The notes under the pieces: generated by a model | What the model was told of the DNA's origin: nothing | The model's input: the letters and a program-made list of their open reading frames with translations, nothing else | The model's database searches: none | Assembly (NCBI GenBank): GCA_951406725.2 | Contig: OX597837.1 | Span: forward strand, 27,528,001-27,592,000 | DNA length: 64,000 bases | Direction: 5' to 3' | Source: Octopus vulgaris | Lineage: Eukaryota | Translations under genes and position numbers: made by a program | In this document: in pieces, positions 6,010 to 48,859 of the stretch | Position numbering within the stretch: position 1 is the stretch's first letter | Layout of the letters: every line of letters begins with the position of its first letter

Positions 6010-6584
6010 ACGAACTGGCAGAATCGTTAGCACGCCGGGCGAAATGCTTAGCGGTATTTCGTCTGCCGTGACGTTCTGAGTTCAATTTCGCCGAGGTCGA
6101 CTTTGCCTTTCATCCTTTCGGGGTCCATTAAATAAGTACCAGTTACGCACTGGGGTCAATGTAATCGATTTAATCCGTTTGTCTGTCCTTGTTTGTCCTA
6201 TCTGTGTTTAGCCCCTTGTGGGTAGTAAAGAAATAGGTATTTCGTCTGCCGCTACGTTCTGAGTTCAAATTCCGCCGAGGTCGACTTTGCCTTTCATCCT
6301 TTCGGGGTCGATAAATTAAGTACCAGTTACGCACTGGGGTCAATATAATCGACTTAATCCGTTTGTCTGTCCTTGTTTGTCCTATCTGTGTTTAGCCCCT
6401 TGTGGGTAGTAAAGAAATAGGTATTTCGTCTGTCACTACATTCTGAGTTCAAATTCCGCTGAGGTCGACTTTGCCTTTCATCCTTTCGGGGTCGATTAAA
6501 TACGTACCAGTTGCGCACTGGGATCGATGTAATCGACTTAATATTTTCCCCCAAATTTCAGGCCTTGTGTCTACAGCAGAACGG

Positions 6585-8050: not shown

Positions 8051-8163
8051 TATAAATAAATTTATATAAATAAGGATAAGATCGTTAATTTAAATACCGA
8101 TCTTATCAAGTGGCCCGTATGGGAATAAAAACCTTCAAAGGTAATAATAATTATCAAAATTAT

Positions 8164-8313
8164 AATTTGGGGTATCTAAGAGATACCTCCACGCTGGAAA
8201 TAGCAGCCAAAACTTGACTCTCTCCTGGTGCTGTATGAACATTTAATGTGGTTTTAGAGTCAAGTTTTGGCTGCTATTTCCAGCGTGGCGGTATCTCTTA
8301 GATACCCCAAATT
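8164..8313. repeat. Fold-back inverted repeat, 58-bp arms
   Basis: 8164-8221 is the reverse complement of 8256-8313 with one mismatch. Confidence 0.9.
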
Positions 8314-8424
8314 TTAATATATATATATATATATATACGATATATATTACTTTATATAATTAGGGTTCAGCAAAAAAATTTACTTTACCACACACCGAAC
8401 TTTTAGAAATAGCAGCCAAAGAAT

Positions 8425-18123: not shown

Positions 18124-18195
18124 TCCTGTGACCAGGATTCGAACCTGGGCTACTACGGCCACAACGTGGGGTCCCAACCACCAGACGATCACGGC
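18124..18195 (-). tRNA. tRNA-His: tRNA-His(GTG), mutated, probable pseudogene
   Basis: Minus strand GCCGTGATCGTCTGGTGGTTGGGACCCCACGTT-GTG-GCCGTAGTAGCCCAGGTTCGAATCCTGGTCACAGGA; typical animal tRNA-His start and T-arm, but A14G and mismatches in the anticodon and acceptor stems. Confidence 0.85.
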
Positions 18196-42454: not shown

Positions 42455-43625
42455 TCGGTTTCAACTTTTGGCACAAAGTTAGCAAGTTCAGCTGTGTGGG
42501 TAAGTCGATTAGATCGACCCCAGTGTACAACTGGTATTTATTTCATCGACCCTGAAAATAGGAAGGGCAAAGTTGACTCCGGTGGAACTTGAACACAGAA
42601 CGTCCAGTCTGACGAAATGCCGCTAAGCATTTCGCCCGGCGTCCTAACCAGTTCTGTCAGCTCGCCGCCTTTTTCTATTATATAATTCACTTCCCCTCTA
42701 AGCACAAAACCCGAAATTTTGGGAAAGGGGAGCAGTCGATTAGAAAAGAATGAAAGGAAAAGTCAACCTCGGTGGAATTGAGCTCAGAATATAAAGACTG
42801 ACGAAATATTGCTAAACATTTCGTCCCGTGTGCTAACGTTTCTTATTTCATTATTGTCCACAAGGGACTAAACATAGAGGGGACAAACAAGAACAGACAA
42901 AGGGATTAAGTCGATTATATCGACCCCATTGCGTAACTGGTACTTAATTTATCAACCCCGAACGGATGAAAGGCAAAGTCGACCTCGGCGGAATTTGAAC
43001 TCAGAGCGTAACCACAGCCAAAATACCTATTTCTTTACTACCCACAAGGGGCTAAACACAGAGAGGACAAACAAGGACAGGCAAACGGATTAAGTCGATT
43101 AGATGGACCCCAGAGCATAACTGGTACTTATTTAATCGACCCCGAAAGGACGAAAGGCAAAGTCGAGCTCGGCGGAATTTGAACTCAAAAGATGAAGACA
43201 GACAAAATACCTATTTCTTTACTATCCACAAGGGGCTAGACACAGAGGGGACAAACAAGGACAGACAAAGGGATTAAGTCGATTATATCGACCCCAGTGC
43301 ATAACTGGTACTTATTTAATCGACTCCGAAAGGACGAAAGGCAAAGTCGAGCTCGGCGGAATTTGAACTCAGAAGATGAAGACAGACAAAATACCTATTT
43401 CTTTACTATCCACAAGGGGCTAGACACAGAGGGGACAAACAAGGACAGACAAACGGATTAAGTCGATTATATCGACCCCAGTACGTAACTGGTACTTATT
43501 TAATCGACCCCGAAAGGATGAAAGGCAAAGTCGACCTCGGCGGAATTTGAACTCAGAACGTAACGGCAGACGAAATACCGCTAAGCATTTCACTCGGCGT
43601 GCTTAACGATTCTGCCACCTCGCCG
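42455..43625 (-). mobile_element. Cluster and tandem array of SINE family B (184-bp period)
   Basis: TATTTCTTTACTA.CCACAAGGGGCTA recurs at ~43028, 43212 and 43396, plus a diverged unit at ~42845. Confidence 0.92.
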
Positions 43626-44014
43626 CCGCCATCGATTGTATAATTCGAATATATAAAATGTTATTTTATTCGATTTATTTGCCATAAATTCGGACATAAC
43701 ATCGAGGTCGAACGATGAAAAAATGTGGAGCACAGACGCGACAGATCAAACAGCAAATAAATAAATAAATAAATAAAGTACTAAAAGAAAAATGTATTTG
43801 AAATGAAAAATGTTATGTAAATAAGTGAAATATATCTAAAGAGAAGTCTGAAATTGGAATCAAGAACTGAAACTGAACTGGGTGGAGGGAAACCGTGGTT
43901 TTCGATGGTAGAATTCCATTGGTGTCTGTAATGACAGTTTATATATAACACCGCCTCAAAATTTGAGAAGTATATATCTTTCTCTCAGGGGTCTCGGATC
44001 TAGAACTTCGCACT

Positions 44015-46525: not shown

Positions 46526-47664
46526 GATTGAATGGCTGTGAGGGTCAACCTGAGCAGAACAGGAATCAAAGAGATTCATAGACGACAAATGGGAATCATT
46601 GAACTTAACACTTCTCCAACGTAACTCGTTAGACTTAATGGTTCGTGTGATACGATGGAAAATGGCAAACATCAAATGCAAATCTGTCAAAAAGACAGCA
46701 CTATATTAAGATAAGTGGTGGTGATTAAGGATGAGGGGAGGGCGAAGTGTGTAATTGGAGAAGCCAGCTGTGTGATAACGAAGGAATCGTATTGTAAAGT
46801 AGGCCCAGCCGTTTAGGGAATTGTGAAGAATAGAAAATTATTGTGATTTGAGTGACATTTTGTTGATGGGGTGTGGTCAACGAGTCGGCTCTTTTGGCAG
46901 ACATTTAAAAGTCTAGGGCTTTTTCTTTTTTTCAGATGTCAAGCCCTTAATTGTGTCACGTGACCAAACTTCCTAAAAAAAACAATAACAGCAACAACAG
47001 AACCTGCCCCCACCCCTACCGCCGCCTCCCAGCAACGAAAGCAGTAGCAACAACAGTAGAGACAATATAACCACAATCATCACCACCAGCACCACCACCA
47101 GCACCAGCACCAGCACCACCAGCACCAGCACCACCACCACCACCACCACCAGCACCACCACCAACAGCAACAACACTTGGGGTGAACCAATTTTTACAGC
47201 ATCTGAGTGGTAGCCTGATTTTCTAGAAAGAACAGCGAAAACCCATCCAAATTACACTACCGCTTTTTCCCTTTTTTTCTTATAAAGGATGCCTTACGCA
47301 GTCTACATACATACATACATACATACATACATACATACATACATACTGAGCATTCTAGATATGCAACTATATGCATAAGAATGCATACCCAAAGCAAAAC
47401 ATATAAATCTGCACATATACACACGTAAATACAAAAATATTATGTTGTTGATGTTGAAATTCCAATAAAGGAGTCTTGATCTAGGTTAGAAACCGGTTCT
47501 TTCTCTATTGGCACGAAATCTTGGAATGAAACTGAATCAAGACACACACACACACATATATATAAGGGTAAAATTTATTCATTAAATTAATTATTTAATC
47601 AATTAATTAATTGATAATTTCACCAAGTAGATCGGTACGTTAAAATAACCTTTATAGGTAAAAT

Positions 47665-48065
47665 TATACAAATATTTTATAATTATAAACGTAATTATAA
47701 TTAGGGTTCAGCTAATTGCTTCACCACATACTGAATTTAGAAATAGGAGTTAAAATTCCTTTTCTACTACTGTAAGAATCTCCATGACAGTAGAATACTT
47801 TTTTACGCAGGCAAAGAGAAAAACTACACTGAAGAGAGAAGTAAATTTTTAAACACTTTAATCTCGAAACGCGTATGTAGTTAATCCTGGTAGTGTTGAT
47901 TCATTGTTTTTCTCTTTGCCTTCGTAAAAAAGTATGTTACCATCATAGAGATTCTTATAGTAGTAGAAAAGGAATTTTAACTCCTATTTCTAAATTCGGT
48001 ATGTGGTGAAGCAATTAGCTGAACCCTAATTATAATTATGTTTATAATTATAAAATATTTGTATA
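47665..48065. repeat. Fold-back element with ~160-bp imperfect arms
   Basis: 47665-47824 is the reverse complement of 47906-48065. Confidence 0.93.
47822..47882 (+). ncRNA. Type I hammerhead ribozyme, fully canonical core
   Basis: AACTACA-CTGAAGA-GAGA(22-nt loop)TCTC-GAAA-CGCG-TA-TGTAGTT; 7-bp stem I, G10.1-C11.1 pair, palindromic ACGCGT; predicted cleavage after 47875. Confidence 0.9.
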
Positions 48066-48859
48066 TATCTATATATAGATATATCCGACATATTGTAATT
48101 TGAAAGTATTGACAAATTGATGCTTTTACGAAAATTTGACCACTTTGTTCCTATGGTGACATGGCTATAAATAATAATTCATAAACTAAGAGGTATATAT
48201 CTTTTTAGATGGAAAAAAGTGGATAAATTCAGCGCCAGGTATCAACCCACACCTCTGGCATAGACCGGCCGGCATTACTTTTAAATTTGTTTTATCCCTT
48301 GTATCATGAGTTGTCACGGCTAGCAGCTTTGAGGGAAGTGGGTAGGTCGATTACATCGACTCCACTACTTTGTTAGTACTTTATTTTATTGACCCTGGAG
48401 AGATATGAAAATCATAGTTAACTTCCGCGGGGTTTGGACTCAAACTGTAAAGTGTCGGAAAAAATGCCGCAAAGCCTTTTAACCTGCGCTCTAACGGTTC
48501 TACCAACTCGCCACCCCAACCTTTTTCTTTTACATTTCTAATCCTAATTGGATTGAATGAACTTTGTGAACAGCCATCCTCGATATTTTCACTTTCATCG
48601 ACAGATCGAGAAATTAATTTTTTGCAACTAAATACTTTCAAACTCCGGACATTGGTAGAATGTGTCAAATAAAACATCTTTTACTCATAGAGTTGTTGAG
48701 AAAAGTTTCTATTTCCGAAGTTATTTCGTGTTAAATTTGTCGTATTTCGGTAATTTCAACCAGTCAATGACGTGTATTCAGCTGGAATCAACATAATCGA
48801 CTTACTCCTCCCCCAATGTAGCTGGCCTTGTGCCAAAATTCGAAACCTATATATATATA

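Follow-up and report, generated by a model that had tools for sequence, protein, structure and literature searches.

A hammerhead in the loop of a long hairpin

The window is a 64,000-nucleotide stretch of the Octopus vulgaris genome (contig OX597837.1, positions 27,528,001 to 27,592,000). It contains a long inverted repeat. The two arms (47665-47824 and 47906-48065) form a gap-free alignment of 160 bp in which 9 positions are mismatched. The spacer that separates the arms is 81 nt. On the + strand, at 47822-47882, there is a type I hammerhead motif, and it is predicted to be cut after GUA, between 47875 and 47876. In helix I, 47823-47828 pairs with 47876-47881 (6 bp, or 7 bp if the extra pair A47822-T47882 is counted). 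The core consists of CTGAAGA (47829-47835) and GAAA (47866-47869), and helix II pairs 47836-47839 with 47862-47865 (4 bp) and has a loop of 22 nt. A palindromic CGCG (47870-47873) stands where a stable helix III would be. The parts that define a type I hammerhead (the core CUGANGA, GAAA, and UH, together with helices I-III) are all present in this copy. When we scanned both strands of the window with a hammerhead descriptor, this motif was the sole match; in 100 block-wise dinucleotide shuffles, there were matches in none. The motif gives no match to the Rfam hammerhead models at the gathering threshold.

The original prediction of a canonical hammerhead in the loop of a 160-bp hairpin is borne out by the arm alignment, by the spacer, and by the sole descriptor match, and it was correct that the core nucleotides are intact. 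Its estimate of the spacer (about 80 nt) was accurate, but the spacer is not almost entirely ribozyme: of its 81 bases, the motif takes up about 58. Also, the motif is not confined to the loop, as 47822-47824 (the first two or three bases of helix I) belong to the long arm as well.

The hairpin is made up of two 5'-truncated copies of a repeat with a 562-nt unit. (We number the unit from the first base 3' of the predicted cut.) The left piece (47564-47824, - strand) covers unit ~31-300 and ends at one preferred 3' site of the family, site B. The right piece (47823-48065, + strand) covers unit ~506-562 and then 1-192, and ends at another preferred 3' site, site A. The arms of the hairpin are the stretch that is present in both pieces (unit 31-192), and the loop is the stretch that is present in one. 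The originally proposed extent holds for the hairpin but not for the whole element, because the left piece continues about 100 bases outward, to about 47564. These bases (47564-47664, - strand; unit ~193-300) form an unpaired "tail" at the left end only, as the right piece stops at unit 192. The two pieces meet head to head at 47818-47824, with a microhomology of 2 nt if exact, or of 6 out of 7 nt if imperfect. The left flank (47550-47563) is a short (CA)n/(TA)n run with no discernible target-site duplication, and the right flank (48066-48086) is a TA-rich run.

A many-copy repeat with one hammerhead per unit

The hairpin belongs to a repeat family that has many copies, encodes no protein, and bears a hammerhead motif. 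Partial tandems define the 562-nt unit, with one hammerhead per unit. The longest stop-free frame in the unit is just 57 codons, and a reading frame for RT + GIY-YIG is absent from it. An 18-mer from the hammerhead has 192 exact matches in the genome, and a 35-mer derived from the arms has 65; the controls have 0. Searching the 2.8-Gb genome for the element gave 2476 first-look candidates, and we scored 40 of these. Overall, we mapped 170 loci, of which 151 are distinct. This sample is enriched for hammerhead-bearing and window-like copies, so the fractions given for the family describe the sample and are not genome-wide rates.

At the level of the family, there are tandems with two hammerheads, for instance in L056 and L096 (same-strand matches that are 562 and 514 nt apart, with pieces of up to 992 nt). 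Arrays of at least three units were not found among the mapped loci. The window copy has a single hammerhead and is a monomer derivative. In the literature that we searched, we found no description of cephalopod retrozymes, and Repbase-type entries or supplementary lists may contain this family. Separately, runs X19 and X20, which are labelled as two other organisms, contain 0.37 and 0.33 of the unit's sampled words, which is a lead to the family in relatives.

Paired pieces and preferred 3' ends

Head-to-head pairs are found at 68 of the 151 distinct loci and tail-to-tail pairs at none of the 151. The other 83 loci have no inverted partner. As for the 3' ends, 112 of 226 pieces end at site A (unit 160-206), 76 end at site B (unit 295-320), and 38 end elsewhere. 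Sites A and B are about 120 nt apart. Among the 42 pairs that could be classified, 36 have one A end and one B end (p = 1.3e-6); in the other 26 of the 68 pairs, an end lies outside both windows, and these were left unclassed. A TA run lies beside 81 of the 112 ends at site A and beside 62 of the 76 at site B. It is seen at 9 of 38 other ends and in 438 of 4530 background windows (9.7%). A caveat is that site A is itself TA-rich, which inflates the count. Both a head-to-head inverted 5'-truncated copy with a one-sided tail and a microsatellite or AT-rich target, which mark derivatives of Penelope-like elements (PLEs), are present here.

Judging by the ends of the BLAST alignments, the two pieces overlap by at least 1 nt in 40 of the 68 pairs. 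In 2 pairs they meet exactly, and in 26 they are separated by a gap. We also considered whether the pieces are joined through the complementarity of helix I, and rejected this: only one of the 68 pairs (L142) ends near unit 507 and 3, and the window copy does not.

The two arms of an insertion tend to belong to the same subfamily. At polymorphic sites, arms within one insertion differ in 58 of 469 comparisons (12%), versus 41.5% between insertions. At other sites, the corresponding values are 8.1% and 9.7%. (We scored 46 of the 49 pairs with enough overlap.) Low divergence at the polymorphic sites and near-equal divergence elsewhere suggest that both arms usually came from one subfamily template and then decayed independently. 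The arms in the window differ at 3 of 14 polymorphic sites, which is at the high end and counts against the one-template reading.

Position of the ribozyme within the hairpins

The whole hammerhead is on one piece only in 32 of the 68 pairs, on both pieces in 9, and absent or partial in 27. The 5' ends of the pieces are ragged, and no single arm length or junction is shared by all copies. Immediately upstream of the ribozyme, 5' ends show no peak: of the 95 pieces at risk, which extend beyond its 3' half, 15 stop in unit 503-522, and most other 20-nt bins have rates of 0.05-0.20. There is no peak at the cut site either, with 5 of 226 pieces ending within 10 nt of it. In a sample that was chosen blind to the hammerhead, 26 pieces extend as far as the cut site, and 2 of them end at it. 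Because the other 24 run through it, we infer that the templates were mostly uncut or re-ligated RNA.

The hammerhead's location in the loop is likely an accident of where copying stopped. The original prediction had instead proposed that self-cleavage would open the loop and leave a long duplex. The copy-to-copy differences in arm lengths and junctions speak against a loop that was built for this purpose.

5' ends are somewhat more common at unit 52-82, near an A-rich run, where the stop rate is 0.23-0.27 per 20 nt.

Is the ribozyme real, and could this copy cleave?

We extracted 81 hammerhead motifs from the family, in a sample that was partly selected on the motif's 3' half, and 65 of them have an intact core. 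The original prediction emphasized that the core is intact even though the arms have diverged. This is true, but it is a weak argument, as most of the family's hammerheads keep their cores.

Helix I shows covariation. In an alignment of 77 of the 81 motifs, 4 of the 6 pairs change on both sides (52 cells, versus 19.2 +/- 3.9 when shuffled; 0/500 shuffles), although the shuffle control ignores the relatedness among copies. (Three motifs that were broken by a junction and one near-duplicate were left out.) Helices II and III show no compensatory change in the 77 aligned rows. Because helix I covaries across copies, it is likely that the source ribozyme of the family is real.

The window copy is another matter. 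In the family, the distal part of helix I is GGA/TCC in 45 of 72 motifs and the adjoining loop is AAT/TAA in 65 of 72, with little covariation. The junction in the window copy turns the family's GGA-AAT into AGA-AAA, which replaces two letters of distal helix I and loop 1. This change may lower activity by affecting a putative tertiary contact. Also, hammerheads with this type of short palindromic helix III are reported to need a second copy for efficient cleavage (PMC4209133). The window copy stands alone, its helix III is of the dimer type, and its distal helix I is altered by the junction, so we consider it a weak candidate for activity. We predict that it is a poor cleaver, and it was likely dead on arrival. 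It had been put forward as the best candidate for an active ribozyme in the window; it is indeed the sole match to the descriptor, but the three features just listed weaken the case.

For a construct of 76 nt, RNA folding predicts that helix I forms, with pair probabilities of 0.79-1.0. In the whole hairpin, the hammerhead fold is 5.6 kcal/mol above the best fold, but a control that is not a fold-back was also without helix I, so this comparison is not discriminating. None of the listed holders of the unit is recorded as RNA. Contigs of five runs were compared with the unit; in the three that are presumed to be RNA, the bin with the junction has no cover, which carries no weight in either direction. 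(Contigs cannot show ends, circles, strand, or level.)

Comparison to retrozymes and Penelope-like elements

Non-LTR retrozymes of metazoans were described by Cervera and de la Pena 2020 (PMC7229834) and by Li, Clavereau and Pollet 2026 (10.64898/2026.07.22.740005). Like the elements in the available text of these papers, the octopus repeat has a non-coding, low-GC unit with one canonical type I hammerhead each, and it has partial tandems, dispersed monomer derivatives, and PLEs in the same genome. Its unit is 562 nt, as compared to 170-400 nt for the first-described retrozymes (PMC7229834) and 51-972 bp in the 2026 preprint (10.64898/2026.07.22.740005). Unlike retrozymes, the octopus family shows no long arrays among the mapped loci. 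Another difference is that inverted insertions are frequent here. The word "inverted" appears 0 times in the available text of PMC7229834 and once in that of 10.64898/2026.07.22.740005.

The hammerhead itself resembles the canonical type I hammerheads of metazoans (Cervera and de la Pena 2014, PMC4209133) in having a 6-bp helix I, a 4-bp helix II, a helix III of 1-2 bp with a palindromic cap, and predicted action as a dimer. It differs from the hammerheads in the available text of that paper in its 22-nt loop II, in its junction-altered distal helix I and loop 1, and in scoring below the Rfam gathering threshold.

The insertions look like those of endonuclease-bearing PLEs, whose layout was described by Craig et al. 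2021 (PMC8557442) and Arkhipova et al. 2013 (PMC3846280). The shared features are 5' truncation, partial tandems, a head-to-head inverted truncated copy, a tail at one end, microsatellite targets, and a hammerhead in the repeat. In contrast to the PLEs in the available text of these papers, the octopus unit is without an RT or GIY-YIG frame. Also, its tail is ~120 nt, whereas the tails of PLEs are given there as 30-40 bp, which argues against the PLE reading.

In vitro, both target strands were cut and extended in the case of the anole PLE Poseidon (Frangieh et al. 2024, PMC11167929). Internal start sites define Poseidon's tail, and unprocessed RNA is the main template (PMC11167929). Similarly, the octopus family appears to have internal 3' start sites and templates that were mostly uncut or re-ligated. 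However, the available text of PMC11167929 reports no difference in start sites between the strands, while the two pieces of the octopus hairpins usually end at different sites.

A twin of the fold-back

Another locus, L002 (G000:C24:27196162-27196675), is a twin of the fold-back in the window. It lies 379 kb from the window hairpin on the same contig, in the opposite orientation, and the two fold-backs are 92.5% alike over 519 bp. They share the junction, a 4-nt deletion in loop II, and private variants that are found in only these 2 of the 151 loci. When we searched the genome for the junction pattern, allowing at most 1 mismatch, there were exactly 2 matches, which are the window copy and L002. 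The flanks of the two loci do not align, and apart from dispersed repeats, the 60 kb that surround L002 have nothing in common with the window. We rejected segmental duplication as the source of L002 because there is no collinear flank within 60 kb. The variants at unit 47-74 are on opposite arms in L002 and in the window copy, and the variant at unit 85 is not swapped. This implies either two exchanges between the arms or an error in the assembly. L002 may have arisen by remobilisation of the whole fold-back, by local conversion, or by local duplication.

Proposed origin of the fold-back

The hairpin is very probably two 5'-truncated pieces of the 562-nt hammerhead repeat that were inserted head to head by the machinery of a PLE, with the ribozyme landing in the loop by accident. 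Several things are visible in the DNA itself: the 562-nt unit, the pieces placed head to head, the preference for two 3' ends, the flanks rich in TA, and the junction. From these, we infer the following mechanism. After a PLE's GIY-YIG endonuclease had cut both strands of a (TA)n target, each strand would prime reverse transcription of the family's RNA, at the internal sites A (unit ~173-192) and B (unit ~300-315). Both cDNAs would stop early, and their far ends would be joined through microhomology. The stretch that was copied twice would become the arms, and the stretch that was copied once would become the loop. At the window locus, the A-primed cDNA would have passed the ribozyme and stopped ~6 nt beyond its core, and the B-primed cDNA would have ended 30 nt before reaching the cut site. 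In the family's source RNA, the ribozyme is likely functional, acting as a dimer in tandem transcripts. We class the window copy as a monomer-derived, inverted insertion of a non-LTR retrozyme, one whose behaviour resembles that of non-autonomous Penelope-like elements.

Instead of priming from both target strands, the second piece might be a product of snap-back, in which synthesis primes itself, using either an antisense template or the first cDNA. In the available text of PMC3846280, the head-to-head junctions of PLEs are read as self-priming on an antisense template, which would be another route to the same layout. Two primings on one RNA would give both arms a template of the same subfamily, but so would snap-back, with which the microhomology at the junction also agrees. 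But pure snap-back on the first cDNA can only recopy sequence that has already been copied, so by itself it leaves the fixed second end and the pairing of A with B (36 of 42) unexplained. And in vitro, a PLE protein cut both strands and extended each of them, starting at internal sites (PMC11167929). We favor two primings because the second end is fixed and because A pairs with B, and we consider snap-back to be unlikely. Another idea, which concerns what happened after insertion, is that the fold-back is itself mobile: since each of its strands has a 3' end of the PLE type, the hairpin could be copied as a whole to a new site. The twin, with its identical junction, loop II deletion, and private variants amid unrelated flanks, is consistent with this. 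However, exactly two genome matches to the junction pattern (at most 1 mismatch) means that there was no burst, and local ectopic conversion or a local duplication at the DNA level accounts equally well for two close copies. Mobility of the fold-back is possible, if doubtful, and it would add to the explanation by PLE insertion rather than replace it. We also consider, tentatively, a more elaborate scheme that strikes us as somewhat unlikely: each RNA would be primed twice, once per strand, at obligatorily different sites 120 nt apart, and the finished fold-back would be remobilised whole, with its inner segments flipped, as the twin hints. If this were true, then Penelope enzymes would be carrying a second generation of passengers, in the shape of hairpins.

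There are two further explanations. The long terminal inverted arms, the lack of a coding frame, and the TA-rich flanks might suggest a MITE, that is, a DNA transposon with terminal inverted repeats. But the terminal inverted repeats are not fixed: 83 of the 151 loci have no inverted partner, and arm length and loop vary among the rest. A MITE would also not account for the unpaired 100-nt tail on one end, or for the ragged 5' ends, fixed 3' ends, and partial tandems, and we consider it extremely unlikely. Alternatively, the loop ribozyme could be active and maintained by selection, with cleavage opening the hairpin to yield a long duplex RNA (for instance, a substrate for silencing or editing). 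However, a 160-bp duplex is a double-stranded substrate whether the loop is cut or not. The core letters and helices I-III are intact in the window copy, helix I is predicted to form in the 76-nt construct, and most invertebrate retrozyme hammerheads are reported to cleave efficiently (PMC7229834), all of which would fit an active ribozyme. On the other hand, just 1 of 9 frog retrozyme dimers was cleaved in vitro (10.64898/2026.07.22.740005). Junctions vary freely, retention of the core is common in the family (65 of 81), the junction alters the distal region of helix I, and the fold of the whole hairpin disfavors the hammerhead (the comparison that is not discriminating). Overall, selection for an active loop ribozyme is very unlikely.

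The locus itself is ordinary. Somewhat more informative is the family, which shows the marks of Penelope insertion on an invertebrate retrozyme. The family supports by mechanism the link that was drawn from vertebrate phylogeny, as stated in the available text of 10.64898/2026.07.22.740005. In the available text of PMC8557442, the formation of inverted structures by PLEs is called undefined. The pairing of A with B, and the subfamily variants that are common to both arms, provide a testable constraint on this process.

Candidate partners and sister families

GIY-YIG matches in the genome come to 148 as listed, with 6136 first-look candidates. Using blastn and a profile search, we found no autonomous PLE with the unit sequence as its own pLTR among 40 GIY-YIG loci. 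The matches to the unit that lie beside L178 and L220 are separate hairpin insertions. There is a young autonomous PLE family (L211-L217) with 781-aa RT + GIY-YIG frames in many copies, and its copies end in (TA)n. Its pLTR is a partial tandem and its tail is short. Several copies also have an upstream frame of 333-479 codons, and the family has a hammerhead-like motif with TTGATAA replacing the usual core. By eye, its pLTR is unrelated to the 562-nt unit. The cysteine linker suggests that this family belongs to the Neptune or Nematis group, as these are described in the available text of PMC8557442.

We also found a younger sister family of retrozymes (L263-L292), whose copies are 95-98% alike. 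Its unit is 602 nt and is homologous to the 562-nt unit by profile search. At the same position, it has a type I hammerhead with a different sequence and with a 6-nt palindromic helix III. It forms the same kind of fold-backs, and these are near-perfect in L287, L271, and L289. The sister family is a better candidate for activity tests than the window copy.

Other families also form fold-backs; those at L230:1362-1864 and L264:1768-2504 have a hammerhead on both arms.

Other features of the window

No plausible coding frame of at least 150 codons, as might indicate a host gene, was found within the window. The original prediction related the arms to 8358-8420, and this likeness holds up: 8355-8415 is 79-80% alike over 61 columns (E = 2e-9). 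The element there (8346-8424, - strand) is a short 3'-end fragment from a related repeat family, which shares the motif near site A, and it is a separate insertion. Nearby, at 8083-8330, is a shorter fold-back with 75-bp arms and a 34-nt loop, from another abundant repeat (3471 first-look candidates). This repeat is weakly homologous to the profile of the hammerhead family, and 19 of its 20 best loci are also hairpins, in a set that was selected by the query.

A weak tRNA-like match (33 bits) lies at 18124-18195 on the - strand. Many dispersed repeats match this stretch, and it is probably part of a tRNA-derived SINE. Finally, 42834-43627 and 6011-6542 are tandem runs of a ~184-bp unit, which is part of a common dispersed repeat.
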